A stretch of DNA of 64,000 nucleotides from positions 359,705 to 423,704 of the forward strand of contig CAYMYC010000001.1 of NCBI GenBank assembly GCA_964394645.1. Reading direction: 5' to 3'. The notes beneath the pieces were generated by a model that made no database searches, was not told the origin of the DNA, and saw only the letters and a list, made by a program, of their open reading frames with translations. A program made the position numbers and the translations under genes. The stretch's first letter is position 1; each line of letters starts with the position of its first letter. The stretch comes from an uncultured Gammaproteobacteria bacterium (GTDB lineage Bacteria > Patescibacteriota > Microgenomatia > Levybacterales > GWA1-39-11). Of this stretch, positions 81 through 49,486 are shown piece after piece.

Positions 81-722
81 ATGAACCACAAAGCTAACCA
101 TTCGCACATAATAGAGCAAGTTCCTTTGGACTATTACCAAAAGGGAGTAAAGAATAATGCGCTACAAAGAGCTTGGCACACAAGAAAACTTGATATTGTT
201 ATATCCTCAGTTAAAAAATACCCAAAAACAATTTTAGATGTCGGGTGTGCTTCGGGGTGGTTTTTATCTAGGGTCCATAAGCAGTTCCCAAAGGCAAAAT
301 GTGTAGGTGTGGATATATACAAAGACGCGATTTTATACGGTAAAAAAAAGTATCCTCGTATTACTTTTCGTACATCAGATGCACATACGCTTCCGTTCAA
401 GGAAAATACATTTGATTTGATTATATGTACGGAAGTATTAGAGCACGTTGACGATCCGTTAATGGCACTAAAGGAAATAAGAAGAGTTCTTAAGGATGAC
501 GGTCAAGCAATTATAGAACTTGATTCTGGAAGTGCTCTTTTTTCTGTTGTTTGGTTCCTTTGGGGATTAAGTCAGGGAAGGGTATGGAATCATTCACACA
601 TACATTCATTTAATGTTCAAAAGCTCGAACGGATGTTAAAAAAGTGTGGGTTTACAATTGAGAGTAAAAAGCGTTTTAATTTAGGAATGGCAATGGTTTT
701 TTCTGCAAGGAAACATGATTAA
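81..722 (+). CDS. class I SAM-dependent methyltransferase
   Basis: Motif I 'ILDVGCASGWF' (GxGxG), acidic motif II, and 'LIICTEVLEHV' motif III. ATG start. Confidence 0.7.
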   Translation: MNHKANHSHIIEQVPLDYYQKGVKNNALQRAWHTRKLDIVISSVKKYPKTILDVGCASGWFLSRVHKQFPKAKCVGVDIYKDAILYGKKKYPRITFRTSDAHTLPFKENTFDLIICTEVLEHVDDPLMALKEIRRVLKDDGQAIIELDSGSALFSVVWFLWGLSQGRVWNHSHIHSFNVQKLERMLKKCGFTIESKKRFNLGMAMVFSARKHD

Positions 723-2196
723 CTTTGTTAAAGCACATTCCTTCTTGATACTTCTATTTCTGATAACAATTTTCGGTTCATTCCCTCGTGCAATTGAACT
801 TTTATCTGGAAACTACCTATTCGGGTTTGATCAAGGGCTGTTTTATGAAGCAGTATATAAGATTGTAGTATTACATCAGCCGACGCTTATAGGAGCAGAG
901 GTTGGTGGAATAGGTGGATTTTTCCAAGGTCCAGGATGGTATTACCTTTTGTCTTTCTTTTTTATAGCATTCAATGGAGATCCATACGGTGCGATGGTTC
1001 TTATGTTTTTATTAGGTGTTTTATCTATAGTTCTTGCCGGACTATTGTTTTATAAGCAAAATGGTATAGTTTTTGCCTTGATTTTTTCATTTTTAATAGC
1101 TCTTTCTCCCGGAATTATTTCTCAGTCCAGATTTTTTTGGCCACCATTTGTTATTACCCCTCTTACAATTTTATTTATATTTGCAATACAAAGCACTTAT
1201 AGTCACAAAAAATACTATTTACCTTTAGCGTTTTTTTTACTAGGTATTATGACTCACTTCGAGATAGCTACAGGAGGGTCACTGCTACTTTCAACTATAA
1301 TTACTCTTTTTTTCGTACGACCAAAAAACGTTATATCAGCTAGGATAATCGGTATAACCTTTATAGCATTTTTTGTAACTCAACTTCCAATTGTGCTGTT
1401 TGATTTACGTCACAATTTTATTGGAACAAAGGGACTACTGAAGTTTCTAACCATAGGATCATCTACGCATACTACATATTCGTTCTCAAACCATATAGAT
1501 ATGTATAAGGATGTCTTACTGATCGTAACAGGTAATTGGCAGCTTGCCTTACTTTGTTTAGCGCTTATTGTATATAGTACATTAAGGATTTTAAGAAAAA
1601 AAACAAAAACGCAAGAAAAAAAAATCATCCTTTTTATAATTTTGTGCCCTACTGTTCTTTTTATGTTATTCCTTCCATTAAAAGCTACGCTTTGGTCTTG
1701 GTGGTTTCTTGAATTGCCAGTGTTTCTCTGTTTTCTTTTATCGAGTTCATTTATTTATGCCTTTAGACAAAAAAAGATAAAAATTTTTGCTTTTTTAATT
1801 TTATTGTTACTATTTATATCATCTTCGTATCAAACGTACTCTTGGTATAAAAATGACTTTTTAGATTATGGTGGAACTGCAAAAATAAGGGGAAAAATTG
1901 ACGCGATTGACTATATATTTAAAGACGCAAAAAGAAAAAATTTTGGCTTATTAGTTTTTAGCCCCCCTGTATATACTTACCCATATGATTATCTTATAAA
2001 ATGGTACGCAGCAAAAAAATATAATTTTTATCCAAAACAAAAAATAACAAATGAGTTTTACTTATTAATTGAGCCCGATCCTGAAAAGCCATGGTCTTAC
2101 AAGGGGTGGATTGACACTGTGATTAAAAAAGGTAAGGTAGTTAAAACAATAACTCTTCCCAGTGGGTTTATCATCCAAAAAAGAATAACAGAGTAA
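715..2196 (+). CDS. polytopic membrane protein, GT-C-fold-like glycosyltransferase candidate
   Basis: 493 aa with more than 10 predicted TM helices. First loop has an acidic 'FGFDQGLFYEA' motif, like the D/E loop-1 motifs of ArnT/PMT-type GT-C enzymes. Confidence 0.4.
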   Translation: MINFVKAHSFLILLFLITIFGSFPRAIELLSGNYLFGFDQGLFYEAVYKIVVLHQPTLIGAEVGGIGGFFQGPGWYYLLSFFFIAFNGDPYGAMVLMFLLGVLSIVLAGLLFYKQNGIVFALIFSFLIALSPGIISQSRFFWPPFVITPLTILFIFAIQSTYSHKKYYLPLAFFLLGIMTHFEIATGGSLLLSTIITLFFVRPKNVISARIIGITFIAFFVTQLPIVLFDLRHNFIGTKGLLKFLTIGSSTHTTYSFSNHIDMYKDVLLIVTGNWQLALLCLALIVYSTLRILRKKTKTQEKKIILFIILCPTVLFMLFLPLKATLWSWWFLELPVFLCFLLSSSFIYAFRQKKIKIFAFLILLLLFISSSYQTYSWYKNDFLDYGGTAKIRGKIDAIDYIFKDAKRKNFGLLVFSPPVYTYPYDYLIKWYAAKKYNFYPKQKITNEFYLLIEPDPEKPWSYKGWIDTVIKKGKVVKTITLPSGFIIQKRITE

Positions 2197-2198
2197 GG

Positions 2199-2204
2199 TA
2201 TAAT
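2199..2204 (+). promoter_or_regulatory. -10 box TATAAT (within GGTATAAT) 8 nt upstream of ATG 2213
   Basis: The sequence 'AAGGTATAAT' begins at the upstream stop codon. The predicted TSS falls at or next to the start codon. Confidence 0.35.
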
Positions 2205-2212
2205 GACATTAC

Positions 2213-2986
2213 ATGAAAAAAATATCTATTGCACTTGCAACATATAACGAAAAAGATAATATTTCAAGATGTCTAAGATCCGTTCAAGATTGGGCTGATG
2301 AGATAGTGATAGTTGATGGTACCTCAAATGATGGCACTCCCGATATTGCAGAATCATATGGAGCAAGAATAATTACAAAACCAAATAATAAAAATTTTCA
2401 TATAAATAAACAGATAGCAATAGACGAATGCAGAGCACAGTGGATATTGCAACTTGATGCTGATGAAGTAGTGAGTACTGGACTGAGACGTGAGATTGAC
2501 GGGCTTATAGCGTCTAATTCTGAGCAGAATGGATATTGGATACCTAGAAAAAATTGGTTTCTTGGAAGGTTTTTGACTAAGGGCGGACAGTACCCTGACT
2601 ATACTCTTCGTCTATACAGAAATGGTAAAGGTAAGTTACCGCAAAAGGATGTACATGAGCAGGCTATTGTTGAGGGTGAGATTGGATTCTTAAAAGAAGA
2701 TTTGCTTCATTATCCGTATAAGGATTTTAGAGCATATTTGAAGAAGTGGCAGCGTTATAATATTTTTGCTGCTGACATTTTGGCTAAAGAGCTAAAAAAT
2801 AAACCAGCAATTGAGCACATAAAAATATTTTTGCTTGAACTCTTATTTAAACCGCTCTGGTGGTTTGTATGGACGTACGGTAGGCATAAGGGGTTTGTTG
2901 ACGGTTGGCAAGGGTTTGTTTTTTCTCTTTTCTCCTCATTACGATTTCCTGTATCATATATAGAATATTTACGTTTTAAGGTATAA
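2213..2986 (+). CDS. family 2 glycosyltransferase (GT-A fold)
   Basis: N-terminal 'ISIALATYNEKDNI' and DxD-like 'LQLDADEV'. 257 aa. Confidence 0.7.
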   Translation: MKKISIALATYNEKDNISRCLRSVQDWADEIVIVDGTSNDGTPDIAESYGARIITKPNNKNFHINKQIAIDECRAQWILQLDADEVVSTGLRREIDGLIASNSEQNGYWIPRKNWFLGRFLTKGGQYPDYTLRLYRNGKGKLPQKDVHEQAIVEGEIGFLKEDLLHYPYKDFRAYLKKWQRYNIFAADILAKELKNKPAIEHIKIFLLELLFKPLWWFVWTYGRHKGFVDGWQGFVFSLFSSLRFPVSYIEYLRFKV

Positions 2987-2987
2987 T
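2982..2987 (+). promoter_or_regulatory. -10 box TATAAT (within AAGGTATAAT) 6 nt upstream of ATG 2994, overlapping the upstream stop codon
   Basis: Same 10-mer as at 2195..2204. Last T at 2987, ATG at 2994, so the predicted TSS is the A of the ATG. Confidence 0.35.
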
Positions 2988-2993
2988 AAATAT

Positions 2994-3968
2994 ATGAAAG
3001 TACTAGTAGCTGGAGGGGGAGGATATATAGGAAGCTTTATGGTAAAAGCTCTGTGTGATCGTAATGACTCAGTTTTTGTTGTCGACAATTTTTTAAAGGG
3101 TTACTACGAATCTGTTGACAGACGAGCAAAAATCATTGAAGGAAATTTGATGGATGGAGCATTTGTCTCTGAGGCGATAAAAAGTATTGGTGATATTGAT
3201 GTAGTTATAAATTTTGCAGGGTTAATTGAGGTGGGACAGTCAGTGAAAGAACCTGGGCTTTATTTTAATACCAATATTTTAATAGCCTTGAACTTGTTGG
3301 AGAACATAAAAAATACCAAGACTAAATTTATTTTTTCATCAACTGCTGCTGTTTATGGTACCCCTGAGACCGTACCAATTCCAGAAAATCACATAAAAAA
3401 CCCTACAAACCCATATGGGGAAAGTAAGCTTATGATTGAAAAAATTTTACACTGGTATAATAAAACGTATGGACTATCCTTTACAGCATTGCGATATTTT
3501 AACGCTTCAGGCGCAGCGCTTGATGGTAGCATGGGGGAAAAACACAATCCAGAAAGTCATCTAATTCCTGTGGCAATAAAAGCACTTTTAGGCAAAAGCA
3601 CTTTTCATCTTTATGGTGATGACTATAAAACAAATGATGGAACTTGTTTGAGAGACTACATTCATGTCTTAGATTTGATTCAGGCTCATCTTCTCTCAAT
3701 TGATAAGATGAAGGATAATTCATCTGAGATATACAACGTGGGGACTGGAAAAGGGTACACAAATCGTGAGATTATAAATGCAATTGAAAAGATTAGTGGT
3801 GAAAAATTGGAAGTTATTGTAGCTGAGCGTAGACCAGGAGATCCTGATGAGCTGATAGCAGACCCTTCAAAAATAAAGACTGAATTAGGATTTGAGCCAA
3901 AATATTCAGATTTAGAAACAATAATAAAATCCGCTTACACCTGGCATGCGAATGAGCAGAGCAAATGA
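2994..3968 (+). CDS. UDP-hexose 4-epimerase (GalE/WbpP family, SDR)
   Basis: 'MKVLVAGGGGYIGS' Rossmann motif and 'YGESKLMIE' YxxxK catalytic motif. 324 aa, GalE-like length. Confidence 0.7.
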   Translation: MKVLVAGGGGYIGSFMVKALCDRNDSVFVVDNFLKGYYESVDRRAKIIEGNLMDGAFVSEAIKSIGDIDVVINFAGLIEVGQSVKEPGLYFNTNILIALNLLENIKNTKTKFIFSSTAAVYGTPETVPIPENHIKNPTNPYGESKLMIEKILHWYNKTYGLSFTALRYFNASGAALDGSMGEKHNPESHLIPVAIKALLGKSTFHLYGDDYKTNDGTCLRDYIHVLDLIQAHLLSIDKMKDNSSEIYNVGTGKGYTNREIINAIEKISGEKLEVIVAERRPGDPDELIADPSKIKTELGFEPKYSDLETIIKSAYTWHANEQSK

Positions 3969-4474
3969 AAATAAGATTTTTCCTAGCATTATTTTTTCTT
4001 ATTTTATCTCAAACACACTGCTTCGCTAGTTCATCTTACGTTCTTCCTTATCCTGGATATATGCCTGGAAATAAACTATACATATTGGATCATGGGTTTG
4101 ATAAAATACAAAACGTTCTCTCCTTTGGAAGCATCTCGCAGTTCAAGCGGAGTCTTGCATTGTCAGATAAAAACTTGGTTGAGGCAAAGACGTTATTTGA
4201 GTACGGTCAATATAAGCTTGCAATAAATGCTCTGCGTGAATCAGATTTACATTATATTAAGATCTACCCGTTGTTAAAGAAGGCTCAAAAAAAAGGGGTT
4301 GATATTTCTGAAAAAGAAAAATTACTTAAAGAGGCATCAGCCAAGCATAAGGAAATTTTACTTGAATTGCGCACTAAAGTTCCAAGCGAATTTATGTGGG
4401 AAGATGAAGAATCGACTCCGTTAAAACTTGAGATACATAAAAAAATAATAAAGTCAATTACGCTTCGCTCATGA
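3965..4474 (+). CDS. hypothetical secreted protein
   Basis: N-terminal signal-peptide-like hydrophobic segment 'FFLALFFLILSQTHCFASSS'. Lys/Glu-rich C-terminus. ATGA overlap with the upstream gene. Confidence 0.4.
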   Translation: MKIRFFLALFFLILSQTHCFASSSYVLPYPGYMPGNKLYILDHGFDKIQNVLSFGSISQFKRSLALSDKNLVEAKTLFEYGQYKLAINALRESDLHYIKIYPLLKKAQKKGVDISEKEKLLKEASAKHKEILLELRTKVPSEFMWEDEESTPLKLEIHKKIIKSITLRS

Positions 4475-5586
4475 AATATATATACGTTTTTTATGCATTA
4501 TTTCTAATTATTTTTGTCATCTTTAGTTACCTTTTTATTGATCCAAATTTATCTTATTTAAGTACGCTTTTCACAGGGTTTTCTTTTACGAATCGAACAA
4601 TCACGTCTGTATTCTTTGTGTTCATTACTTCATTGTTTTTTGTGTTTTATGTATATTTTTTAAATGCAAAAAGAAGTAGTGCACCTTTGCTTAGGAATTT
4701 AGTTTTAATTTCAGCAGTATGTTTGATATTTTCATATCCTACAGTTACATCATATGACGTATTTAATTATATGACAACGGCGAGAGTTGCGTACTTCTAT
4801 CAAGAGAACCCATATATAGTTATGCCAAATGAATTTATTGGAGATGATATGTTGAGATACACAAGGGCAGCAAACAAAACAGCACTTTACGGACCAGTAT
4901 GGATACTATTAACTTTTATTCCTTATGTATTTGGATTTTCCAGTTTTCTTATCACACTTTTTTTCTTTAAGCTTCTAGTTGGTATTTTTTATTTAGGATT
5001 AGTCTTTCTTGTATTTCGTTTTTCAAAAAAAAACATACAAAAGACTTTATTTTTTGCACTTAACCCTCTTGTATTAATTGAAACCTTTGTAGCTGGTCAC
5101 AATGATGTGGTGATGATGTTTTTTGTATTTGCTTCTCTCTACTGTTTAGCAAAAAAAAATATATTCCTCTCTGTCATATTTCTTATCATGTCCATATGTA
5201 TTAAGTTTTCTACTCTATTTTTAATACCGATATATATACACACAATTTTTAAGATGGTTAAAAAAGATAAAATAGATTTTCAGAGAATATGGAAATATTC
5301 TTTGTTATTAATGGTAATAATATTTTTACTCTCTCCTATAAGGGAGGAGCTGTATCCATGGTATGCAATATGGTTTATACCTTTTGCGGCTCTTATAGAT
5401 GGATATAAAAATTTAAAGAGAATTACAATAGCACTTTGCTTCGGCTTACTTTTGTCTTATGTTCCGTACATGCTTACAGGAGCATACTCATTTAATACAT
5501 ATTTGGCAAAGCACATTATTATTCTTGTTCCAGTTGCGGTAACGGTTGTATTTGAGTTAATCTTTAAAAATGATAAAAATATATAG
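4471..5586 (+). CDS. polytopic membrane protein, GT-C-fold-like candidate
   Basis: 371 aa with about 10 TM helices. Loop motif 'SYDVFNYMTTAR'. ATGA overlap. Confidence 0.4.
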   Translation: MKYIYVFYALFLIIFVIFSYLFIDPNLSYLSTLFTGFSFTNRTITSVFFVFITSLFFVFYVYFLNAKRSSAPLLRNLVLISAVCLIFSYPTVTSYDVFNYMTTARVAYFYQENPYIVMPNEFIGDDMLRYTRAANKTALYGPVWILLTFIPYVFGFSSFLITLFFFKLLVGIFYLGLVFLVFRFSKKNIQKTLFFALNPLVLIETFVAGHNDVVMMFFVFASLYCLAKKNIFLSVIFLIMSICIKFSTLFLIPIYIHTIFKMVKKDKIDFQRIWKYSLLLMVIIFLLSPIREELYPWYAIWFIPFAALIDGYKNLKRITIALCFGLLLSYVPYMLTGAYSFNTYLAKHIIILVPVAVTVVFELIFKNDKNI

Positions 5587-7219
5587 ATACATTTTTCCCC
5601 AATCAGGGTTGCTTTTATCCATTTTAATTGGATTATTTTCTGTCTTTCCATTATTTCAGATAGGATTGCCTCCTACACATGATGGAGAGTACCACGTGAT
5701 AAGATTTTACGAATTTGATAAAACTTTACGAGACGGGAATTGGTATCCACTATGGGCATCAGATTTAAATTATATGTATGGTTCACCTCTTTTTAATTAT
5801 GTCTATCCACTTCCCAATTATTTTGCTTCACTTTTTCATTTTTTTGGCTTAAGTTTTATAGACGCATTCAAGCTAAATTTAATTATTGCAACTGTTATAG
5901 GATCGCTTTCATCATTTTTGTATATGAAAAAAAGGTATGGGGCTTGGAATGGTTTTATGACTTCTGTTTTTTATACATATGCACCTTATCATTTTTTGGA
6001 TATATATATTAGAGGGTCTGTGGGTGAAGTTTGGGCGCTGGCGTTATTCCCATTTGCATTGATTGCAATTGACAGTATACGGAAAAAACCTACTCTTAAG
6101 CACATTTGTTTGGGAGCAATTGCGTATGCACTCATTATTTTTTCTCATAATATCCTGGCAGTAATGTTTACAATTTTTGCACTTTTTTACTGCTTGCTTG
6201 TATTACATAATGCGAAAAGTAAACCGCGTGTTGCAGTTGCATTTTTGTGCTCATTTATAATAGCGCTTTTGGTGGCTAGTGTTTTTATTTTACCTGCGCT
6301 CTTTGAGCAGAGATATGTTGTTGGTTTACAGATTTTTCAGACAACGCGAAATTTTGCTGATCTTTATCAACTACTAATTCCGTCATGGGGTTCAGGGTTT
6401 TCAGGAGGGAGCATGTCTTCGCAAATGTCGTTTCAGATAGGTGCAGCTAATATTTTGGTTTTTATTATTATTCTGATTATTTTTCTTTTTCGGAAAGTAA
6501 AAAAAGAGAAAATATATATAGCTTTTTTTATGATTTGGTTTCTACTATCATGTTTTTTAGTCACCCCGTATTCCGCATTTCTATGGGAGAATATTTCGTT
6601 TATGGATAATTTTCAATTTCCATGGCGCGTTTTAAGCATAGGTGTATTATGTGGTGCAATTCTTGCTGGGTGTATCCCTCTTATATCCAAGTTAAAAGTT
6701 TTATATGTTATACTCATAATCGCATGTATTGGATTCTCTTATTCTTACGCTCGACCGCCTTATCTTTTACCAAGAGTAGACAGTGATCTTTACACAAAAT
6801 CAAATTTTATATATGGTACCAATAGTATTGGAAATTCATTTCAAACTAAATGGTTGCCCCAACAAGAAATATTATTTTCTTCAATAGCAAATGTTCCAGT
6901 AGTATCAGTATTTGAAAATTCGACAGAAAAAAAGTATAGAGTTAGTTTAAAAAAAGAAATGGATGTTGTATTTAACATTTCTTATTTTCCCGGTTGGTTT
7001 GCGCAAGTAGATGAAAAAAAAATAAGAGTAAAGCAGAGTGGGGGAAAGATTGCAGTCACTGTGCCAAAAGGAGATCATGAAATATACTTGAGACTTTCCG
7101 ATACAAAGCTAAGAGGCGTTGCAAAGTTAGTAAGCGTAATTACAATCAGTATTATAATCATCTTTTTCATGTCTTCTGTGGTACAATATTTACATAAGAA
7201 AAATGATAAGAATTTATGA
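5570..7219 (+). CDS. YfhO-like GT-C membrane glycosyltransferase candidate
   Basis: 549 aa. N-terminal multi-TM domain with 'HDGEYHVIRF' loop motif. Extracytoplasmic C-terminal domain with 'YFPGWFAQVDEKK' motif (nt 6983..6997), then a final TM anchor. Same layout in ORFs 20808 and 32071. Confidence 0.45.
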   Translation: MIKIYRYIFPQSGLLLSILIGLFSVFPLFQIGLPPTHDGEYHVIRFYEFDKTLRDGNWYPLWASDLNYMYGSPLFNYVYPLPNYFASLFHFFGLSFIDAFKLNLIIATVIGSLSSFLYMKKRYGAWNGFMTSVFYTYAPYHFLDIYIRGSVGEVWALALFPFALIAIDSIRKKPTLKHICLGAIAYALIIFSHNILAVMFTIFALFYCLLVLHNAKSKPRVAVAFLCSFIIALLVASVFILPALFEQRYVVGLQIFQTTRNFADLYQLLIPSWGSGFSGGSMSSQMSFQIGAANILVFIIILIIFLFRKVKKEKIYIAFFMIWFLLSCFLVTPYSAFLWENISFMDNFQFPWRVLSIGVLCGAILAGCIPLISKLKVLYVILIIACIGFSYSYARPPYLLPRVDSDLYTKSNFIYGTNSIGNSFQTKWLPQQEILFSSIANVPVVSVFENSTEKKYRVSLKKEMDVVFNISYFPGWFAQVDEKKIRVKQSGGKIAVTVPKGDHEIYLRLSDTKLRGVAKLVSVITISIIIIFFMSSVVQYLHKKNDKNL

Positions 7220-8277
7220 GAATTGCTATAGATAACTCCCCCATAACATCATCGCATAGGCTTGCTGATAAGATAAGAGGAACGGGTTTTTACATAAAAA
7301 ATCTAATTGATGCATTAGAGAAATATCATCCTGAACATGAGTACATTTTTTTTCAACAAGGGGAATTTCCACCTGATGCTGATATTTACCACTATCCATA
7401 TTTTGAGCCATTTTTTTTGTCCCTTCCTTCAAGGAAGTATGGTAAGTCAATTGTGACAGTCCACGATGTTATTCCACTTGTGATGCCTGAATTATTCCCA
7501 GTTGGTTTACGTGGAAAAATAAAATTTTTTATTCAAAAAAGAAGACTTTTAAAAATGGATGGTATTATTACAGACTCGCAAGCCTCAAAGGAAGATATTA
7601 TCAAGATCTGCCGCATAAAAAGTGAAAAAATAACAAGTATTCCCTTAGCCCATTCCCCGGTATACAAAAAAACAAAAATAAATTCCGCTGACAGAAAAAA
7701 AATTTTAAGTAAATACCATATTCCAGATGATTTTGTATTATATGTTGGAGACGCAACTCCAAACAAGAACTTAAAAAGGCTTATCAACACCGCTCTAAAT
7801 CTGAAAATTCCCCTTGTTATGGTAGGTGGCGCACTTGTAAGAAATAAAGTCACTACCCATCCATGGAATAGAGACCTTTTATATGTTCAAAAAATGGCAG
7901 AGTCGTATAATAATATTTATCTTTTGGGGTATGTTTCAGATGCTGATTTATCAGTTTTATACAATATATGCAAAGTGTTTGCTTTCCCTTCACTATACGA
8001 AGGGTTTGGGCTACCTGTATTAGAGGCTGCAAGCTCAGGTGCAGCCATTGTTACATCCCACAAAGGAAGTTTGAACGAGGTTATTGGTGATAGTGCTCGG
8101 ATTGTAGACCCGTATAATGAAGATAGTATTACGATTGCTGTAGGTGAGACATTTAATAGTAGGCACTTACGTGTTAAATTAGGAAAAATGGCTTACAAAA
8201 GATCTAAGAATTATGATTGGAAAAAAACTGCTGATGCTACAGTTGACGTATATGAAAAAATTTATACAAGGAAATAA
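7216..8277 (+). CDS. family 4 glycosyltransferase (GT-B fold)
   Basis: C-terminal EX7E region 'FPSLYEGFGLPVLEAASSGAAIVTS'. 'IAIDNS' GT4 N-domain start. Confidence 0.75.
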   Translation: MRIAIDNSPITSSHRLADKIRGTGFYIKNLIDALEKYHPEHEYIFFQQGEFPPDADIYHYPYFEPFFLSLPSRKYGKSIVTVHDVIPLVMPELFPVGLRGKIKFFIQKRRLLKMDGIITDSQASKEDIIKICRIKSEKITSIPLAHSPVYKKTKINSADRKKILSKYHIPDDFVLYVGDATPNKNLKRLINTALNLKIPLVMVGGALVRNKVTTHPWNRDLLYVQKMAESYNNIYLLGYVSDADLSVLYNICKVFAFPSLYEGFGLPVLEAASSGAAIVTSHKGSLNEVIGDSARIVDPYNEDSITIAVGETFNSRHLRVKLGKMAYKRSKNYDWKKTADATVDVYEKIYTRK

Positions 8278-9358: not shown

Positions 9359-9363
9359 TTATA

Positions 9364-11356: not shown

Positions 11357-11358
11357 TA

Positions 11359-34334: not shown

Positions 34335-34335
34335 G

Positions 34336-37744: not shown

Positions 37745-37750
37745 ATCTAC

Positions 37751-41709: not shown

Positions 41710-43164
41710 ATGATAAAAAAAATAGAACTTGCAATTTTTGTATTTATACTTATTCTGGCATTTGTGTTAAGGTTGTACCGTTTTGATAATCCCATTGGTG
41801 ACTGGCATGCGTTCCGGCAAGCAGATACCTCAGCCGTTGCGAAAGTCTATGTTTCAAATGGAATAAACCTTTTATCACCAAAATATTTTGACATATCAAA
41901 TATTCAATCTGGGAAAGATAACCCTGAGGGGTATAGATTTGTTGAATTTCCCGTAATGAGTGCTATTCAGGCAAGTACATTCATGTATATAGGGGTATTG
42001 AGTCTTGAGGAGTGGGGAAGACTGATTACTATCTTGTCGTCCTTGGGAAGTCTAACCTTTATATATTTACTTGTTCGTAGGCACCTTGATCCTGTTTCTG
42101 GCTTGTTTTCAGCCTTTTTTTATGCCATTCTTCCTTATTCAATTTTTTATGGACGTGTGATACTTCCAGATCCCGCTTGCGCTTGTGCTATTCTTGGCGG
42201 GATATATTTTTTTGATGTTGCAATGTCATATAAAAAACATAAGATGCTTTTGCTGAATATATTTTTCTGGCTTGCTCTTGTTTTTACAGCTATATCATTT
42301 TTATTAAAGCCTTTTGCGTTATTTTTTACCTTACCTATGTTTATTCTTGCATGGAAGAGGTACGGTTTTAGGGTTTTTCTTCGATGGGAGTTGTATATCT
42401 TTGCTTTTTTATCAATTCTTCCGCTTGTGCTTTGGAGGATTTGGATAACTCAACATCCCGAAGGGATACCAGTATCAAACTGGTTATTTAATGAAGGTGG
42501 CATACGATTTACCGGTGCGTTTTTTCACTGGATATTAGCAGAAAGAGTAGCAAAGCTTATACTTGGGTACTTCGGGATTGTTCTTTTATTGTTAGGTCTA
42601 TTTAAAAGAAATGAAAAAAACTATTTGTTTTTCTTGTCATTCTTAGTTTCATCAATTATCTATGTAATTGTAATCGCACGAGGAAATGTTCAGCATGACT
42701 ATTATCAAATATTAATATTGCCTACAATATGTATTTTCCTAGGAAGGGGAGCGACCTATTTACTGTCCATTCCCGTGAAGACAGGTGAGAATATTGGGAT
42801 AAACACATTCATTTCATTATTTACGCTCACAGTAATAATTATCCTTTCTTTTATGCTCTCCTGGTATCATGTTCGTGATTATTTTAATATTAATAACAGG
42901 GGGCTAATTAATGCTGGAATTGTTGCTGATAAGCTGCTGCCGAAAAATGCAAAAGTAATAGCGGCAAACGATGGAGACACTTCATTTTTGTATTATATAA
43001 ATAGAAAAGGGTGGCCTGCATATGAAAAAAGCGTAGAGGGCTTGCAGGAGTTAGGTGCAACTCACATAGTCGTTCCAAGCCCAACTGAAAATGACATTAA
43101 AGGTTTAGGAACGATTTACAAGCGTTTGTATACGTCGAAAGATGTATTGATTCTTAAATTATGA
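41710..43164 (+). CDS. polytopic membrane protein, GT-C-fold-like candidate
   Basis: 484 aa, about 11 TM helices. Loop 'WHAFRQADTSAVAKVY'. C-terminal soluble domain. Confidence 0.4.
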   Translation: MIKKIELAIFVFILILAFVLRLYRFDNPIGDWHAFRQADTSAVAKVYVSNGINLLSPKYFDISNIQSGKDNPEGYRFVEFPVMSAIQASTFMYIGVLSLEEWGRLITILSSLGSLTFIYLLVRRHLDPVSGLFSAFFYAILPYSIFYGRVILPDPACACAILGGIYFFDVAMSYKKHKMLLLNIFFWLALVFTAISFLLKPFALFFTLPMFILAWKRYGFRVFLRWELYIFAFLSILPLVLWRIWITQHPEGIPVSNWLFNEGGIRFTGAFFHWILAERVAKLILGYFGIVLLLLGLFKRNEKNYLFFLSFLVSSIIYVIVIARGNVQHDYYQILILPTICIFLGRGATYLLSIPVKTGENIGINTFISLFTLTVIIILSFMLSWYHVRDYFNINNRGLINAGIVADKLLPKNAKVIAANDGDTSFLYYINRKGWPAYEKSVEGLQELGATHIVVPSPTENDIKGLGTIYKRLYTSKDVLILKL

Positions 43165-44333
43165 AGCTATTAATCCTAACATATGATTTTCCTTATCCTA
43201 TTACAAGTGGGGGTAAGAGTAGGATATACAACCTTATAAAGTTTCTAAAGAAAAAAGATACAGAAATTTATTTATTATCTTTTATTCGCGATACATACAA
43301 AAAAAAATATGACGATTCAATTTTAAATATAGGAGTATCAGAAATATTCCACTTTAAAAGAAAAAAGGTAATATCCCCATCTATAATTATGAAGACTTCG
43401 TTTTCATCAGGATCTGTGTTTAAAGCTTTATATAAGGATCAAAGAGTTGAAAAAAAAATAATGCAGATAATTTGCGAAAAAGATATAGATGTTATTCTAT
43501 TTGAGTCTTTTTATACGTCATTCTTTATATCTGAAGAAATAAAAAGAATGAACGTAAAACAGATTTTTGGCACAGAAAATATTGAGCATATTCTCTATCA
43601 GGATTTTGCACTACAGAAATCAAGAATTGCAAAAGGCTTGTACATGTCTCAAGTTAAAAAAATCAAAAAAGAGGAAGAGATTGCTTATAATAAGTCAGAC
43701 TTAGTTCTTGCTATTACGGAAGAAGAAAAAAACAATATTTCTAAAAAGACAAAGACAAATATAGAGGTTATTCCAAATGGAGTTGATAGTTCTTCTCTAT
43801 CTTTCAAATCTCATTTTTCTGGCGGAAAGAAACTTTTATTCGTAGGAAATTTTTCTTATTTTCCAAATATTGATGCAATGGATTTCTTCTATAAAAATGT
43901 TTTTTTAAATATTCCTGACGCAACACTTACCGTTGTAGGAAGAAGTCAAAATAAATTACCATTTCTAATCTCTGACAGTAGAATTCGTAATATAGAATAT
44001 ATTGAGGATATTGCAAGCGTGTATTATGATTCTGATATATTCGTTTTTCCAGTTCGTTTTGGGGGTGGAACTAATTTCAAAGTACTAGAGGCAGCGAGCT
44101 GTGGCACCCCTATTATTGCAATTCCTAACCGTGTAAAGGGTTTAGGTTTTATTGCCGATACTCACTATGTTGAAGCATCATCTCCTGTAGATTTTATGAG
44201 GGGTATACGGAGATTGTCGGAGGAGAGAGAATTACAGAGGAAAATAACAAAAAACGCACGTACTTTAATAGAGAAGGATTATGACTGGAAAAAAATAGGA
44301 GAAAAACTGGGGGAGATTTTCCATAGTATATAA
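43161..44333 (+). CDS. family 4-like glycosyltransferase
   Basis: 'FPVRFGGGTNFKVLEAASCGTPIIAIPN'. Confidence 0.65.
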   Translation: MKLLILTYDFPYPITSGGKSRIYNLIKFLKKKDTEIYLLSFIRDTYKKKYDDSILNIGVSEIFHFKRKKVISPSIIMKTSFSSGSVFKALYKDQRVEKKIMQIICEKDIDVILFESFYTSFFISEEIKRMNVKQIFGTENIEHILYQDFALQKSRIAKGLYMSQVKKIKKEEEIAYNKSDLVLAITEEEKNNISKKTKTNIEVIPNGVDSSSLSFKSHFSGGKKLLFVGNFSYFPNIDAMDFFYKNVFLNIPDATLTVVGRSQNKLPFLISDSRIRNIEYIEDIASVYYDSDIFVFPVRFGGGTNFKVLEAASCGTPIIAIPNRVKGLGFIADTHYVEASSPVDFMRGIRRLSEERELQRKITKNARTLIEKDYDWKKIGEKLGEIFHSI

Positions 44334-44361
44334 AGAAGGCAATAGCCTCTATGAAGACACA

Positions 44362-45273
44362 ATGAAAACAATAGATTTATCAATTATTACTGTTGCGTTT
44401 AATTCCCAGAACGAGATTAAGAAATGGGTAGAAGTAATCGATAGAACTGTCAGCAAATATTCATTTGAGATGATTATATCCGATAACAGTCCGAATGAAG
44501 CAACTGAAAAAGTAGTGGTAGAGCTTCAGAAAAAGCACCCTGAGTTAATTTACATACATAATCATGATAATCTTGGTTTTTCTCGAGCGAATAACGTAGC
44601 AATAAGAAAAGCAAAAGGAAAATACCTGCTATTCTTGAACCCGGATATGGAAGTAGGTGAGGGTGCAATTGATGGGGCTTTATCATTCCTTTTGGCACAT
44701 AGCGATGCAGGTTCTGTAACTCCTGCTGTTTATCTTCCGAACGGTATGCTTGATGACTCATGTCATCGCGGATTTCCTACTCCATGGAATTCTTTCACTT
44801 ATTTTTCAGGATTGTCCAGAAAATTTCCAAAAATTAAACTTCTTGCAGGGTATAACATGACGTATCTGGATTTCACAAAAGAACATACGATAGATTCGCT
44901 GGCTGGTTCTTTTCTTATTATTTCAAGAGATTTAGGTGAAAAATTAAAATGGTGGGATGATGATTATTTTTTTTATGGAGAAGATATAGATTTTTGTTAC
45001 AGAATAAATAAGGCAGGGTATAAGATTTATTATCTTCCACAGTATAAGGCGCTTCACTATAAAGGAATGTCATCGGGGATTAAGGATATTTCTAGGCAAG
45101 AGTCAAAAGCTACAAATGAAACTAAGATATGGGCTACTAACCAAAGATTTAAAGCAATGGAAATTTTTTATAAAAAACACTATGAAAGAAGATATCCATG
45201 GGCACTAAATAAATTAGTATTTATTGCGATAAAAATAAAACACAAGATGGCTCTTAAAAATTTAAACGGTTAA
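44362..45273 (+). CDS. family 2 glycosyltransferase
   Basis: 'LSIITVAFNSQNEI', 'MIISDNSPNEAT', 'YGEDIDFCYR'. Confidence 0.7.
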   Translation: MKTIDLSIITVAFNSQNEIKKWVEVIDRTVSKYSFEMIISDNSPNEATEKVVVELQKKHPELIYIHNHDNLGFSRANNVAIRKAKGKYLLFLNPDMEVGEGAIDGALSFLLAHSDAGSVTPAVYLPNGMLDDSCHRGFPTPWNSFTYFSGLSRKFPKIKLLAGYNMTYLDFTKEHTIDSLAGSFLIISRDLGEKLKWWDDDYFFYGEDIDFCYRINKAGYKIYYLPQYKALHYKGMSSGIKDISRQESKATNETKIWATNQRFKAMEIFYKKHYERRYPWALNKLVFIAIKIKHKMALKNLNG

Positions 45274-45424
45274 ATGCTAACGGGTACTCAGTTGGTAGTA
45301 ATAGTTATTATATATTTTAAGGGTTTGTAACAGCAACTTCGATTAATAATATCTTCATGGTAAATTTTTAATCGCCATTACTTAGTTTGTTGATTAATTC
45401 AATCAAATCAAGGATAATGGTGGA

Positions 45425-46579
45425 ATGATAGATGAGGGAATAATTCAAAAAATAGGTATCGATATAAGGTTATGGAATGAGACTGGAATCGGACGATATA
45501 TACGAAATTTAATTTTTGAGTTAGCCAAAATTGAACAAAAAAACAAATACGTTTTATTCGCAAGACCAGATGATATACCAGAAATTAACAGATTAAGTAA
45601 CATAAGTGAGGCAAAGGAAAAATTTATTATTATTCCGACAAGCATTAAATGGCACTCAATACAGGAGCAAGTAGAATTTCCTAGGATTTTGATGAAATAT
45701 AAGTTAGATTTAATGCATTTCCCATATTTTTCTGTACCAGTTTTTTATAGAAGATCATTTGTTGTAACTGTTCATGATTTGATTATTAATCATTTCCCAA
45801 CTGGACGTGCAACCACACTCCCGTTGCCTCTATATAGAATAAAACGTGTCGGATATGAACTTATTTTAAAGTCTGCGGTTTCAGGCGCTAAAAAAATTAT
45901 TGTACCATCAGAAGCAACGAGGCGTGAATTAGTTGAACACTACCAGATAAAGGAAGATAAGATTATTGTAACCCAGGAAGGAATTGATGAAAACATAAAT
46001 TCTTTCACTCCTGTAGTATTTAAAGATAAACACCCATATTTTCTTTATGTGGGGAATGTATATCCTCACAAAAATATTGAAGTAATGCTTGAAGCATTTA
46101 AGATATTTTCAATACAGCATCCAGGTGTCGTAATCAAATTAGTCGGAAAACAGGACTATTTTTATAAACGATTAAGAATGTATGTAGAAAAACACAAGAT
46201 ATCTCACGTTGAATTTATGGGGTATGTAGATGATTCTAAGTTGTCCAATCTTTATTCAAATGCTGTAGCTACAGTTATTCCTTCTCTTATGGAGGGTTTC
46301 GGTTTGACTGCGTTGGAGGCAATGAAAATGAAATCTTTAGTAGTTGTTTCAAAAATTCCTTCACTTCAGGAAGTATGCGGTAAGAATGCAATATATTTTG
46401 ACCCGAATGATACTTTAAGTATTGTGGATGCCATGAATATTTCACTAAATCTTAAAAGTGAAGATAAGAAGAAGATGTTAAGCAGTGCAATGGAGCATTC
46501 AGAAACATTTACCTGGGAAAAAATGGCTAAGCAAACGATTGCAGTATACGATTCCTGCCTCAAAAAGCATAAGATATAA
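45425..46579 (+). CDS. family 4 glycosyltransferase
   Basis: 'PSLMEGFGLTALEAMKMKSLVVVS'. Confidence 0.75.
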   Translation: MIDEGIIQKIGIDIRLWNETGIGRYIRNLIFELAKIEQKNKYVLFARPDDIPEINRLSNISEAKEKFIIIPTSIKWHSIQEQVEFPRILMKYKLDLMHFPYFSVPVFYRRSFVVTVHDLIINHFPTGRATTLPLPLYRIKRVGYELILKSAVSGAKKIIVPSEATRRELVEHYQIKEDKIIVTQEGIDENINSFTPVVFKDKHPYFLYVGNVYPHKNIEVMLEAFKIFSIQHPGVVIKLVGKQDYFYKRLRMYVEKHKISHVEFMGYVDDSKLSNLYSNAVATVIPSLMEGFGLTALEAMKMKSLVVVSKIPSLQEVCGKNAIYFDPNDTLSIVDAMNISLNLKSEDKKKMLSSAMEHSETFTWEKMAKQTIAVYDSCLKKHKI

Positions 46580-46596
46580 GAAAAATTTAAGATCAA

Positions 46597-46612
46597 AACC
46601 TAAGCTTAGGTT
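46597..46612. promoter_or_regulatory. perfect 16-bp palindrome AACCTAAGCTTAGGTT (operator or weak terminator)
   Basis: Exact inverted repeat 18 nt after the stop of GT4 45425..46579 and 54 nt before the start of GT4 46666. Abuts a TTGAGA hexamer. Confidence 0.3.
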
Positions 46613-46665
46613 GAGATATTGGTTATTCCAATAGTATGTGATCTCTATTATACTCGAACGATAGT

Positions 46666-47766
46666 ATGAAAGTAGCTTTAGTATACGATCGGATAAATAA
46701 ATGGGGAGGGGCTGAACGGTTATTGCTTCTCTTGCATGAGATTTTCCCTAATGCTCCAGTATTCACTTCTGTATATGATCCCCATGCTGCACCCTGGGCT
46801 AAAAATCTTGATATTAGAACTTCATTTTTAGAGCACATTCCGTATGCACGAAGACATCACGAATTTTTTGCCCTTTTTATGCCTTTGGCTTTCGAGTCAT
46901 TTCAGTTTGATGAATTTGATTTAGTAATTTCTCTTAGTTCAGAGGCGGCAAAAGGGATAATTACACCTCCCCACACAAAACATATATGTATATGCTTAAC
47001 ACCAACAAGGTATTTATGGAGCGAATACGATTTATATTTTGCAAACGAACCATTACGAACTCTGTCTTTACCTTTAGTTTGGTATTTAAGGAGATGGGAT
47101 TTAGTAGCTTCATCAAGACCGGACTTTTATATTGCAATTTCACAAACGGTCAGTGATAGGATAAAAAAATATTATAATAAAAATTCAAGTGTTATTTATC
47201 CACCCTTGCTTCTTGATAGCAATAAAGAAGAAGCGCAGATGACTAGTCGTAATTATTTTCTTGTCGTATCTCGTTTGTCTCGTTTTACACCTCAGAAGCG
47301 GGTTGAACTTGCCATAAAAGCTGCAAATAAGCTAAAGTTACCGTTAGTAGTTGTTGGAGATGGAGATGTAGCTCATTTTAAACATATTGCAGGCAAAACC
47401 GTATCTATTGTAGGTAAGGCGACTGATTATGAGTTGGCTAATTATTATAAAAATTGTATAGCTCTTATATTTCCGGGTGTGGAGGATTTTGGTTTAGTGA
47501 TGGTTGAAGCTCAAAGTTTTGGTAGACCTGTGATAGCATTTAAGCAAGGTGGAGCTTTGGAGATTATTCAGGAAGGTAAGACTGGAGACTTTTTTGATAA
47601 ACCTACTATTTCTTCTCTTGTCAATACGTTGAAATTGTTTGACAAGAGAAGATATAATAGTAAAGATTGTGTTATAAATGCAGCTAGATTTAATAAAGAC
47701 ACATTTATAAATCAAATACATATGTCAATTCAAAAATTAAAAGTAATGGAGGATGAAGAAAATTGA
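46666..47766 (+). CDS. family 4 glycosyltransferase
   Basis: 'FPGVEDFGLVMVEAQSFGRPVIAFKQGGALEII'. Confidence 0.75.
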   Translation: MKVALVYDRINKWGGAERLLLLLHEIFPNAPVFTSVYDPHAAPWAKNLDIRTSFLEHIPYARRHHEFFALFMPLAFESFQFDEFDLVISLSSEAAKGIITPPHTKHICICLTPTRYLWSEYDLYFANEPLRTLSLPLVWYLRRWDLVASSRPDFYIAISQTVSDRIKKYYNKNSSVIYPPLLLDSNKEEAQMTSRNYFLVVSRLSRFTPQKRVELAIKAANKLKLPLVVVGDGDVAHFKHIAGKTVSIVGKATDYELANYYKNCIALIFPGVEDFGLVMVEAQSFGRPVIAFKQGGALEIIQEGKTGDFFDKPTISSLVNTLKLFDKRRYNSKDCVINAARFNKDTFINQIHMSIQKLKVMEDEEN

Positions 47767-48845
47767 AAGCAGTAATATTTGCTGGTGGAGTAGGAACGAG
47801 ATTGTGGCCATTATCACGTAAGAATAGTCCAAAACAATTTGAGAAAATTATAGGTGAGAATTCCACACTTCAAGAGACTGTGCAAAGATTACTTCCCGAG
47901 CTATCCCATAAAGATATTTTTATTGCGACAGGAAAACGATACGAAGAAATAATTAAGGGACAATTGTCAGATATACCTCATGAAAACTTTATATTTGAGC
48001 CTGAGATGAGAGATGTTGGTCCTGCGATAGGATTAGTTGCTGCAATGTTGGCTGAAAAATTTCCCGATGAACCGATTGCGATATTGTGGAGTGATCATAT
48101 GGTAAAGAATGTGGAAGCCTTTAAGAGCGCACTTTCTTTTGCCGAACAAGCAATAAAAGATGATGAATCAAAATTTGTTTTTATAGCACAAAAACCACGA
48201 TTTCCAAACCAGAATATGGGATGGATTGAGGTGGGTGATGAGTTAAGCGAAGAAAAAAATATTAAAGCTTTTTTATTTAAAGGCTTTAAGTATAGACCAA
48301 CACTTGAAGAAGCATCCCAATTTTTTAAAAGTGAAAAATTTTATTGGAATCTCGGATATTTTGTGACAACCCCTTCATATCTCCTATCACTTTTTAAAGA
48401 CTTTGCTCCAGACGTATACTCAACACTAATTACCATAAGAGAAGCAAAAAGAAATTCAAATTTTGAAACCGTATTGCAAGAGAACTATAGTAAATTAGAA
48501 AAGATTAGTTTTGACGATCTAATACTGATGAAGATACCACCTGCGGGTTTGGAGGTAGTTGCTTGCGATTTGGGTTGGAGTGATATAGGAGCTTGGGAGT
48601 CGTTGAAAGAGGCATTAGCAGAGCATATAGATGAGAATGTTACAAAAGGAAACGTTATATTAAAAGATTCGCGTGATTCTTTAGTTTATAATTATACAAA
48701 TCAAATGGTCGTAGGAATTGATTTAGATGAGCTACTGGTTGTAAATACGCAAGATGTAGTATTAATATGTCCCAAAAGATCAGTTCCTAAGATAAAAAAA
48801 CTTGTCGAGAGTTTGTCCGATACAGAACACGAGCACCTAACTTAA
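47763..48845 (+). CDS. mannose-1-phosphate guanylyltransferase-like sugar nucleotidyltransferase
   Basis: 'MKAVIFAGGVGTRLWPLSRKNSPKQF' nucleotidyltransferase signature. 360 aa, ManC-like length. Confidence 0.65.
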   Translation: MKAVIFAGGVGTRLWPLSRKNSPKQFEKIIGENSTLQETVQRLLPELSHKDIFIATGKRYEEIIKGQLSDIPHENFIFEPEMRDVGPAIGLVAAMLAEKFPDEPIAILWSDHMVKNVEAFKSALSFAEQAIKDDESKFVFIAQKPRFPNQNMGWIEVGDELSEEKNIKAFLFKGFKYRPTLEEASQFFKSEKFYWNLGYFVTTPSYLLSLFKDFAPDVYSTLITIREAKRNSNFETVLQENYSKLEKISFDDLILMKIPPAGLEVVACDLGWSDIGAWESLKEALAEHIDENVTKGNVILKDSRDSLVYNYTNQMVVGIDLDELLVVNTQDVVLICPKRSVPKIKKLVESLSDTEHEHLT

Positions 48846-48850
48846 AACTT

Positions 48851-49486
48851 ATGTACTATTTTGAAAAAAGAATTCTTGATATAGTCTCATCGCTTCTTTT
48901 GCTGTTAGTTTTTTCCCCAATCATTATACTTACGGCAATAGCTATAAAAATTGATTCGAGAGGTCCGATTTTTGCTGATACTCCTATGCGCGTAGGAAGA
49001 CGCGGTAAACTTTTTAGAATGTACAAATTCAGATCTATGGTTCAAAATGCCTATGAAATTCTTTCAACTGATCCGAAATATAAAGAATTATATGATGAAT
49101 ATAAGAAAAGTGGGTTTAAATTAAGAAATGATCCAAGAGTGACTAGTGTAGGGCACTTTATCAGAAAATATTCCCTTGATGAGATACCGCAGTTTATAAA
49201 CGTATTAAAAGGAGATATGAGCATGGTTGGACCACGGGCGTACTATGCTGACGAACTAAATTATCAACAAAAAAAATATCCGCTCACACAGGATGCTGTA
49301 AAAGTTGTGCTTTCAGTAAAACCTGGCATAACAGGACTTTGGCAAGTTTCAGGACGGAGTCAGATTAATTTTGATAAACGTATTCAGATGGATGCAAAAT
49401 ACGCAAGGCGACACTCCATATTTTATGATGTCTATATAATGGCTAAAACACCCAAGGCGATGCTTTCGGCAAGAGGTGCAATGTGA
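48851..49486 (+). CDS. polyprenyl-phosphate sugar-1-phosphate transferase (PglC/WecP-like small 'bacterial sugar transferase')
   Basis: '[22 protein letters not shown]' re-entrant helix, '[19 protein letters not shown]', '[21 protein letters not shown]'. PF02397-type. 211 aa like PglC. Confidence 0.75.

Follow-up and report, generated by a model that had tools for sequence, protein, structure and literature searches.

The 64-kb window analysed here (64,000 nt of contig CAYMYC010000001.1) contains 57 open reading frames (ORFs) of at least 100 aa with a gene-like appearance, numbered G1 to G57, and carries a long glycan-assembly region. On balance this is probably the main envelope-glycan assembly region of its host, with a vertically inherited conserved core and a strain-variable middle, and it would direct the two-compartment assembly of a methylated and acetylated glycopolymer. 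The evidence that carries this reading comes from family and fold assignments, synteny and the pattern of conservation. All 57 ORFs were scanned against Pfam and selected sets also against NCBIfam, which confirmed the families behind an initial annotation of a glycan locus at positions 81 to 49486; the region is real, but its extent, unity and novelty had been stated too strongly.

The DUF4012 protein encoded by G46 is 95 to 96% identical to proteins in two Candidatus Levyibacteriota metagenome-assembled genomes (MAGs) and 71% and 57% identical to proteins in two further contigs, and the named homologs of other locus proteins are all from Patescibacteria. From these sequence matches, the organism is a Candidatus Levyibacteriota bacterium (candidate phyla radiation (CPR)/Patescibacteria, Microgenomates). 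The contig with the 57% match (L005; CAZIAP010000001.1, 452 kb) is titled 'uncultured Gammaproteobacteria bacterium' and carries the Levyibacteria-type order of G39-G52 at 31 to 73% aa identity; since it shares this gene order, the MAG is probably taxonomically mislabelled.

The soluble enzymes were largely as first described. Six GT2 glycosyltransferases (G3, G11, G14, G28, G37 and G41, by Pfam), three hexapeptide acetyltransferases, five S-adenosylmethionine (SAM)-dependent methyltransferases and five short-chain dehydrogenase/reductases (SDRs) were all recovered in the numbers initially given. G29, the acetyltransferase of NeuD/PglD type, scores 188 bits with the NeuD/PglB/VioB model (cutoff 161), and G26 is the FkbM-type methyltransferase. 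Among the SDRs, G17 matches plant GDP-mannose 3,5-epimerase (GME) structures end to end (PDB 2c59, E 1e-98), as expected for the GME homolog already proposed. G4 passes the GalE equivalog model (369 bits, cutoff 262), for which reason its assignment as a GDP-mannose dehydratase was rejected. Pfam also bore out the genes present in single copy: a DegT aminotransferase (G30, 313 bits), a Wzx-like flippase (G10, Polysacc_synt, 48.8 bits, cutoff 28.2; nine or more transmembrane (TM) helices), a PglC-like phosphoglycosyltransferase (PGT; G45, a 211-aa Bac_transf protein, 207 bits against a cutoff of 27), a ManC-like guanylyltransferase (G44) and an SGNH protein with an N-terminal anchor (G24). Thus the PglC-like (G45), PglE-like aminotransferase (G30) and PglD-like acetyltransferase (G29) components of a Campylobacter-type Pgl set are all present. 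The DUF4012 gene exists as described, but lies beyond position 49486 (Table 1). NCBIfam gave no specific names for the GT2, Wzx, DUF4012 or PMT_2 proteins, and a hydropathy scan found no TM helices in the six GT2s, two of which (G11 and G3) have weak, below-cutoff matches to PgfS, ArnC, AglJ and dolichyl-phosphate hexose transferases.

The GT-B enzymes comprise eight full-length Glycos_transf_1 proteins and not, as first counted, eight canonical and two non-canonical ones. The canonical E[GD]FGxxxxE form of the EX7E motif occurs in five of the eight (G8, G12, G35, G42 and G43); G19, G31 and G40 are without it, and G34 is an N-terminal half. This 179-aa ORF corresponds to the Rossmann half of a GT4 (Glyco_transf_4) and lies just upstream of the full GT4 gene G35. 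An ORF of similar size is kept in relatives L012 (89% identity) and L014 (174 aa, 63%), and this conservation, at 63 to 89%, led to rejection of the idea that G34 is a recent pseudogene fragment. By its conservation, G34 looks like a functional stand-alone half-glycosyltransferase.

It is the polytopic proteins that give the region its character. The hydropathy scan identified 12 with at least six TM helices, one of them the flippase G10. The estimate of about ten GT-C-like proteins in the window stands, with evidence graded from a Pfam match of the protein itself, through Pfam matches of its homologs, predicted fold (G22 and G38) and paralogy or weak hidden Markov model (HMM) matches, to a mere hint. 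GT-C models are passed by three: G7 (YfhO, 44 bits against 28.5, and PTPS_related), G13 (PMT_2, 36.1 against 26.1) and G39 (PMT_2, 29.1 against 26.1). G2 has no Pfam match of its own, but its homologs form at least 665 clusters, in many of which PF13231 and ArnT-like names occur. G6 matches MptA weakly and its 50% identical homolog carries PF26314 (MptA_B_family). G32, G25, G9 and G22 fall below curated GT-C cutoffs; G25 resembles the C-terminal half of G38, and for G9 a GT87 match at E 0.08 and an FDGxxY-type loop are a hint only. G23 is not GT-C-like. In the Pfam scan the glycosyltransferase calls held up, and none of the polytopic proteins besides Wzx was assigned to a transporter family. 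Aspartate and glutamate motifs in G2, G6, G7, G9, G13, G25 and G32 were seen by eye in single sequences only. Single-sequence hhalign comparison among the polytopic proteins had no power (probability of 5% for G7 against the G22 family), and phmmer searches of G32, G38 and G2 against PDB sequences gave nothing at E ≤ 1.

One polytopic protein that family models do not cover is G22. It has no match in any library, and its family (67 clusters in a word-indexed search) consists entirely of 'hypothetical' proteins without Pfam domains. In an alignment of 41 family members, a GGDD motif (residues 36-39) directly after the first TM helix is invariant, including D38 and D39. The AlphaFold2 (AF2) model of G22 (pLDDT 85.6, pTM 0.88) gave GT-C proteins for all of its top 21 Foldseek matches in the PDB (STT3/OST, AftD, PglB, AftA and ArnT), after which matches drop to E > 0.2. 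G22 is thus predicted to have a GT-C fold, in a family without a Pfam or NCBIfam model. When 1.84 billion proteins were searched with a family profile, 607 representatives were retrieved at E ≤ 1e-30. Many of these are longer than G22: some measure about 1040-1065 aa and are extended N-terminally by about 320 aa, others measure about 1220-1250 aa and are extended C-terminally. Fusions around the G22-type GT-C, possibly with G23-like parts, seem common.

G32 matches Pfam GT-C_AftD at E 4e-4, below cutoff, and its L012 homolog also matches G22; on these matches G32 is a distant paralog of G22. A WWDxG or WWD motif is absent from G22, G32, G38, G25 and G7, and as G22 and G32 lack the WWDxG of STT3/PglB they were not filed as oligosaccharyltransferases. 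In L008 (GCA_002430675.1, DJCT01000001.1), a 1344-aa protein encoded at 12181-16215 consists of homologs of G23 (residues 18-315), G32 (347-994) and SGNH G24 (1023-1344). This fusion is a Rosetta-stone link between G23, G32 and G24, which are separate genes in the window, where G24 is on the opposite strand.

G38 (1040 aa, about 20 TM helices) is the second distinctive protein. In its AF2 model (pLDDT 78.6), an N-terminal half of nine TM helices, an outside loop and three further TM helices precedes another membrane module, and a beta domain forms the C-terminus. Foldseek matched the model to STT3, WaaL (7tpg, TM-score 0.60 on the target), ArnT, PglB, Pmt4, DPY19 and FtsW. Just after the first TM helix of the C-terminal half, D579 does not vary in an alignment of 52 sequences, and D578 is kept in at least 90% of them. 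G38 is accordingly modelled as two fused halves, one WaaL/Wzy_C-like and the other a GT-C module of about 500 aa (GT-C_A). The Wzy_C-like domain of the initial annotation does not reach the Pfam cutoff in G38 itself (18 bits against 31.7), but the call is upheld by the model's match to WaaL and by homologs, which often carry PF04932 or are annotated 'O-antigen ligase family'. Polymerase and ligase activity are not separable by sequence or fold, so the N-terminal half is described as Wzy_C/WaaL-like only. Homologs of G38 form at least 1520 clusters in Patescibacteria (Levybacteria, 'Patescibacteria group' and Saccharimonadales) at 42 to 50% identity.

The span of 81-49486, described earlier as about 46 co-directional genes with gaps of 0 to 150 nt, contains 45 ORFs of at least 100 aa. 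Coding sequence occupies 98% of it, and its junctions comprise 21 overlaps, 14 gaps of 0 to 20 nt and nine gaps above 40 nt, so that tight packing and frequent overlaps were verified, but the largest gap is 234 nt. Co-direction is likewise nearly complete, at 43 of 45 genes on the plus strand (the exceptions are G24, 24042-25016, and G27, 27497-28156), but is not specific to the locus: 53 of the 57 ORFs in the window share that strand, among them non-glycan genes such as RecO, an aminoacyl-tRNA synthetase and the dcw genes, and in a housekeeping region of relative L011 19 of 20 genes are co-oriented. Co-orientation is consequently not a property of the locus. Cumulative GC skew climbs monotonically across the window, GC content of which is about 33%, and no tRNA or Rfam match was found in its 64 kb.

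Neither 81-49486 as a unit nor its left end survived comparison with relatives. In L010, a contig 99.4% identical to the window, three genes stand directly before G1. One encodes a PMT_2 protein of 563 aa, another a PMT_2-like protein of 499 aa and the third, oppositely oriented, a polytopic protein of 485 aa. In L013, a 59 to 72% relative, four tandem PMT_2 genes and two further polytopic genes precede G1-G12, which are in the order of the window. The left coordinate is the edge of the window and not of the locus, and at least three to six more GT-C genes lie upstream. On the right the locus has a clear boundary that relatives share: genes for ManC, PGT and DUF4012 are followed by RecO, the aminoacyl-tRNA synthetase and mraZ-rsmH-ftsI-mur, an order kept in relatives down to 51 to 57% identity, as is PGT-DUF4012-RecO in particular. 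Over more than 55 kb no non-glycan gene interrupts the locus in the window or in L013, L012 and L014. The region of at least 55 kb would amount to roughly 5% of the genome, because near-complete contigs of relatives are 0.76-1.17 Mb long, and the earlier remark that this is a large investment for a small genome is reasonable.

The locus is conserved in related genomes, with conserved 5' and 3' blocks and a variable middle. The 5' block (G1-G12) is collinear in L013 at 50 to 72% aa identity. At the other end, G34-G46 are collinear in L014, where the G38 homolog is 43% identical; G34-G37 are collinear in L012 (75-89%) and L014 (41-67%), G39-G45 in L002, L012, L005 and L014, and G33 is 97% identical in L012 and has no counterpart in L014. 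The central module (G17, G18, G19, G21, G22, G23 and the G25 family) is adjacent in L007 and L008 at 34 to 78% identity, within long arrays of glycosyltransferase, methyltransferase and SDR genes, G17, G18, G19 and G21 standing next to the G22 family at 45 to 78%. In the window the 5', central and 3' blocks directly adjoin one another, and each fetched relative covers one to two of them in the same order; the L013 contig also has a G38 homolog.

The close relative L012/L002 breaks this continuity and with it the claim of one indivisible super-locus. G33-G46 are 75 to 99% identical there, while homologs of G22, G23 and G32 are only 36, 30 and 38% identical, and G24-G31 are absent from L012, where a single methyltransferase gene stands between the G23 and G32 homologs. 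Nucleotide similarity to L012 starts at 34329, 7 nt before G33, within the 234-nt gap. That gap also contains a terminator-like hairpin and T-run (34180-34198, plus strand), the sole intergenic case on this strand. L006, a 93% relative, has the window's version of the variable cassette. GC content is lower across 20-32 kb (0.30-0.325 in G25-G31), and a repeat search of the window found no insertion sequence elements, long repeats or mobile-element signatures at the cassette borders. As far as sequence comparison goes, the region is a mosaic of conserved 5' and 3' blocks around a centre that is swapped or divergent in a close relative. By analogy, conserved flanks with a variable interior are the pattern of serotype-determining loci.

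From these families we infer substrates, order of steps, product and acceptor as follows. In the cytoplasm, ManC-like G44 would supply GDP-mannose, GME homolog G17 with SDR G18 would make GDP-L-galactose or L-gulose-type sugars, and GalE G4 would make UDP-Gal or UDP-GalNAc. DegT G30 and NeuD/PglD-family G29 may make a 4-acetamido-4,6-dideoxyhexose; a viosamine-type sugar is equally possible since the best matches of G30 are DesI-type dTDP-sugar aminotransferases. The small PGT G45 would prime polyprenyl phosphate, with DUF4012 (G46) as a putative accessory of the priming step, as in Gram-positive exopolysaccharide (EPS) loci. Chain extension would then fall to eight GT-B and six GT2 enzymes and decoration to five methyltransferases and two acetyltransferases of WbbJ type, and Wzx-like G10 would flip the lipid-linked glycan. 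Outside, the WaaL/Wzy_C-like half of G38 would polymerise the glycan or ligate it to an acceptor, the ten or so GT-C enzymes of the window and at least three to six from upstream would add sugars from polyprenyl-phosphate-monosaccharide donors, and exported SGNH G24 may edit O-acetylation. The variable middle (G24-G31, with divergent alleles of G22, G23 and G32) presumably alters decoration between strains in the manner of serotype cassettes.

The pair formed by G17 and the 275-aa SDR G18 (16366-18238) is the best conserved of the central module, at 70 to 78% in L007/L008 against 34 to 59% for its neighbours. This conservation suggests that a sugar of L-galactose or L-gulose type, which would be uncommon in bacteria, is among the constant components.

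Elements of envelope biology outside the locus are consistent with such a scheme. CPR bacteria are regarded as having a Gram-positive-like envelope, and DUF4012 is among the families that they share with Gram-positives (PMC6744442); adjacency of PGT and DUF4012 genes also occurs in the EPS locus of Bifidobacterium longum (PMC5412050).

Several results weigh against a single envelope-glycan pathway. Pfam identified no Wzz/PCP protein or CpsC/D kinase among the 57 ORFs, and the window has neither an LCP ligase nor an acceptor gene (S-layer, pilin). No ORF of 80 to 180 aa with at least three TM helices, as expected of a GtrA/GtcA-type small flippase, occurs on either strand. No GT2 is clearly identifiable as a polyprenyl-phosphate-sugar synthase, G11 having weak matches and no C-terminal TM helices, which leaves some ten GT-C enzymes without an evident source of donors. 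Between 1 and 60 kb, consensus scans for sigma-70 promoters and intrinsic terminators gave no more hits than expected from shuffled sequence and hence cannot define operons. Finally, a G2-family gene stands alone among housekeeping genes in L011, so not every gene of the locus need serve one product.

The last point belongs equally to an alternative in which three or more unrelated pathways (a PMT_2/GT-C array, a Wzx-linked block, a GME-centred module and a core PGT block) lie side by side and appear as one locus only through gene density and strand bias. The window-wide strand bias, found also in unrelated regions of relatives, would be expected in that case, as would the unequal conservation of the blocks, the swapping of the centre independently of the 3' block and the different module order in L007 and L008. 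However, the window has one priming transferase (G45) and one flippase (G10), about 39 kb apart, which the blocks therefore appear to share. No non-glycan gene breaks the stretch of more than 55 kb in the window, L013, L012 or L014, and the contiguous blocks recur one or two at a time in the same order, with a G38 homolog on the L013 contig. Juxtaposition of independent pathways is considered rather unlikely.

General protein O-glycosylation of an S-layer and/or type IV pilins, in which a lipid-linked glycan made by G45 and the GT-B and GT2 enzymes would be flipped by G10, the PglL-like half of G38 would transfer it en bloc to Ser/Thr and the PMT_2 proteins (G2, G13, G39 and the upstream array) would O-mannosylate secreted proteins, is judged rather improbable. 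The Wzy_C family does include the PglL/PilO O-oligosaccharyltransferases, and the PF04932 matches of G38 homologs and the likeness of its model to WaaL suit such a role, as do several PMT_2 proteins and a window without LCP ligase or Wzz, which fits a non-polymer product. Both pili and S-layers occur on CPR cells, whose pilins are suspected, though not tested, to be glycosylated (10.1101/2024.11.25.624915; PMC5220378). Yet the 64-kb window and the fetched flanks yielded no pilin, S-layer or sortase-substrate gene, ArnT-like enzymes that glycosylate lipids and glycans also fall under PMT_2, neither G22 nor G32 has the STT3/PglB WWDxG motif, and 14 cytoplasmic glycosyltransferases with about ten GT-C enzymes far exceed the needs of known systems.

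A lipopolysaccharide (LPS) O-antigen locus of rfb type in a diderm, with G38 as a WaaL ligase attaching to lipid A-core, can be put aside as most improbable: its superficial likeness in size and architecture to the Leptospira rfb locus, the WaaL-like fold and 'O-antigen ligase' annotations and the Gammaproteobacteria label of one related contig are outweighed by closest genomes that are Levyibacteriota, by CPR lacking PilQ and having an envelope regarded as Gram-positive-like (PMC6744442), by a window without lpx, kdo, lpt or Wzz genes, and by the Levyibacteria gene order of that probably mislabelled contig.

Comparison with known systems shows that 'no precedent' was an overstatement. The Leptospira rfb locus comes nearest in size and architecture. 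In serovar Lai it encodes 88 proteins, including many glycosyltransferases, methyltransferases and sugar-nucleotide enzymes; its 3' block, which contains the processing genes including Wzy, and its 5' part are conserved, whereas the interior varies and is prone to exchange (PMC10958091). Very large size, conserved 3' and 5' parts and a variable interior are shared. In contrast, the Leptospira product is the LPS O-antigen of a diderm and its locus is not rich in GT-C genes, whereas here about ten GT-C enzymes and a WaaL-GT-C fusion occur in a monoderm-like CPR bacterium.

Mechanistically, established family knowledge and the weak HMM and fold matches suggest that the mycobacterial GT-C assembly of lipoglycans and the three-component YfhO/ArnT systems are closest. 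Lipomannan, lipoarabinomannan and arabinogalactan synthesis in Corynebacterineae (MptA/B, PimE, AftA-D and Emb) likewise uses two compartments, GT-B and GT2 steps in the cytoplasm giving way to many GT-C enzymes that act outside on polyprenyl-phosphate sugars; the MptA/B match of G6, the proximity of G22 and G32 to AftD and STT3 and the GDP-mannose provided by G44 are in keeping with this. However, the matches are weak or at the level of fold, without sequence-level orthology; a Ppm1-type synthase and genes for decaprenyl-phosphate-arabinose or mycolate are absent here; the genes form one contiguous region; and methylation and acetylation enzymes are far more numerous. As in the Gtr, CsbB-GtcA-YfhO and ArnC-ArnT systems, YfhO/PTPS_related G7 and the PMT_2/ArnT-like G2, G13 and G39 adjoin small GT2 enzymes, but no GtrA/GtcA flippase accompanies them, C-terminal TM helices of the kind that mark GtrB and CsbB are missing from the GT2s, and GT-C enzymes are an order of magnitude more numerous.

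Gram-positive Wzx/Wzy clusters for EPS or capsular polysaccharide (CPS), such as the eps cluster of B. longum 105-A, also have PGT followed by DUF4012, GT4 and GT2 enzymes, a Wzx-type flippase and a Wzy_C-type membrane protein. The locus described here is two to three times larger, has its Wzy_C domain fused to a GT-C and is without Wzz, tyrosine-kinase or LCP/CpsA genes in the window. The combination of many GT-C enzymes with many methyl- and acetyltransferases indeed sets it apart from a textbook Wzx/Wzy O-antigen or capsule cluster, as initially noted. G38 resembles the WaaL/PglL/Wzy_C family in its arrangement of nine TM helices, outside loop and three TM helices, in homologs that pass PF04932 and in its match to WaaL 7tpg, but differs in falling below the Pfam cutoff and in its permanent fusion with the GT-C_A module, which is about 500 aa long, in a lineage without lipid A-core. 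The enzyme classes are known ones; what is distinctive is the density of GT-C enzymes, the near-universal WaaL-GT-C fusion of CPR bacteria and GT-C families without models, and a boundary-less, unprecedented super-operon is unsupported.

CPR/Patescibacteria account for much of bacterial diversity and live bound to other cells, yet next to nothing has been learned about their surface chemistry. The locus offers a concrete, lineage-conserved list of parts: one priming enzyme, one flippase, a near-universal WaaL-GT-C fusion, a swap-prone cassette and, with the upstream array, at least 13 to 16 GT-C enzymes in a genome of about 1 Mb. With such a list one can test what a CPR cell is coated with, how core genes divide from serotype-like ones, and whether differences in the variable part follow the specificity for host or phage. 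Curated models are lacking for at least one GT-C family of some size (G22 type) and for the conserved fusion of G38 type. CPR genomes have been noted to hold many glycosyltransferases, their glycosylation being unexplored (10.1101/2024.11.25.624915; PMC5220378), and in the literature searched no description was found of this locus, the G38-type fusion or the G22-type family, and nothing specific on 'Levyibacteria'. Tentatively, the G38-type fusion and the G22/G23/G32/SGNH module might even represent a CPR-wide undescribed pathway for the principal envelope glycopolymer of monoderm-like, teichoic-acid-lacking bacteria, built largely by extracytoplasmic GT-C enzymes, with the cassette setting host or phage specificity in episymbiosis; this is conceivable rather than probable.

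Table 1. Features of the glycan-assembly region and its surroundings (window coordinates; MT, methyltransferase; AT, acetyltransferase)
Feature	Position	Strand	Content and basis
5' block, G1-G12	81-12480	+	SAM-MT, G2 PMT_2-like GT-C, GT2, G4 GalE, G5 DUF5667, G6 MptA/B-like GT-C (Pfam, NCBIfam, Pfam of homologs)
G7-G12 of 5' block	within 81-12480	+	G7 YfhO/PTPS_related GT-C, GT4, G9 polytopic, G10 Wzx-like, G11 GT2, G12 GT4
G5	3965-4474		DUF5667
G10 Wzx-like flippase	9364-10623	+	Polysacc_synt
G13-G21	12461-20811	+	PMT_2 GT-C, GT2, SDR, SAM-MT, G17 GME homolog, G18 short SDR, G19 non-canonical GT-B, SAM-MT, G21 WbbJ-like hexapeptide O-acetyltransferase
G17 GME homolog	16366-17409	+	PDB 2c59
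G22, 729 aa, 14 TM	20808-22997	+	GT-C-fold enzyme by predicted fold; no Pfam/NCBIfam model
G23 membrane protein	22994-24052	+	No known family (Pfam scan)
G24 exported SGNH/GDSL protein	24042-25016	-	Esterase or acyl-transferase (Pfam); N-terminal anchor
Variable cassette, G25-G31	24989-32067		G25 GT-C-like, G26 FkbM MT, G27 SAM-MT (-), G28 GT2, G29 NeuD/PglD N-acetyltransferase, G30 DegT, G31 non-canonical GT-B
G32, 676 aa, 10 TM	32071-34101	+	AftD-like GT-C (GT-C_AftD below cutoff); distant G22 paralog
Intergenic gap, 234 nt	34102-34335		Evolutionary breakpoint; possible transcript boundary
G33-G37	34336-38611	+	G33 SDR, G34 GT4 N-half (35427-35966), G35 GT4, G36 hexapeptide AT, G37 GT2 (Pfam)
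G38, 1040-aa fusion	38586-41708	+	WaaL/Wzy_C-like N-half and GT-C C-half (modelled)
G39-G45	41710-49486	+	G39 PMT_2 GT-C, G40 GT-B, G41 GT2, G42 GT4, G43 GT4, G44 ManC-like GDP-mannose pyrophosphorylase, G45 small monotopic Bac_transf PGT
G46 DUF4012	49556-51508	+	Conserved 3' end of locus; Pfam 88.8 bits
G49	53732-54223		163 aa, no family
RmlC	57767-58381	-	dTDP-4-dehydrorhamnose 3,5-epimerase
GlmU-like	61307-62545	+	NTP_transferase and hexapeptide
G57	62542-63549		335 aa, weak DUF4434 match

Two sugar-nucleotide genes, for RmlC and for a GlmU-like protein, lie within the cell-division and peptidoglycan cluster downstream (mraZ, rsmH, ftsI, Mur ligase and murA) and may supply the glycan locus. 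Three small genes encode secreted or anchored proteins. The position of G5 is kept in L010 and L013, G49 belongs to no family, and the weak match of G57 is to a glycoside-hydrolase-like domain.

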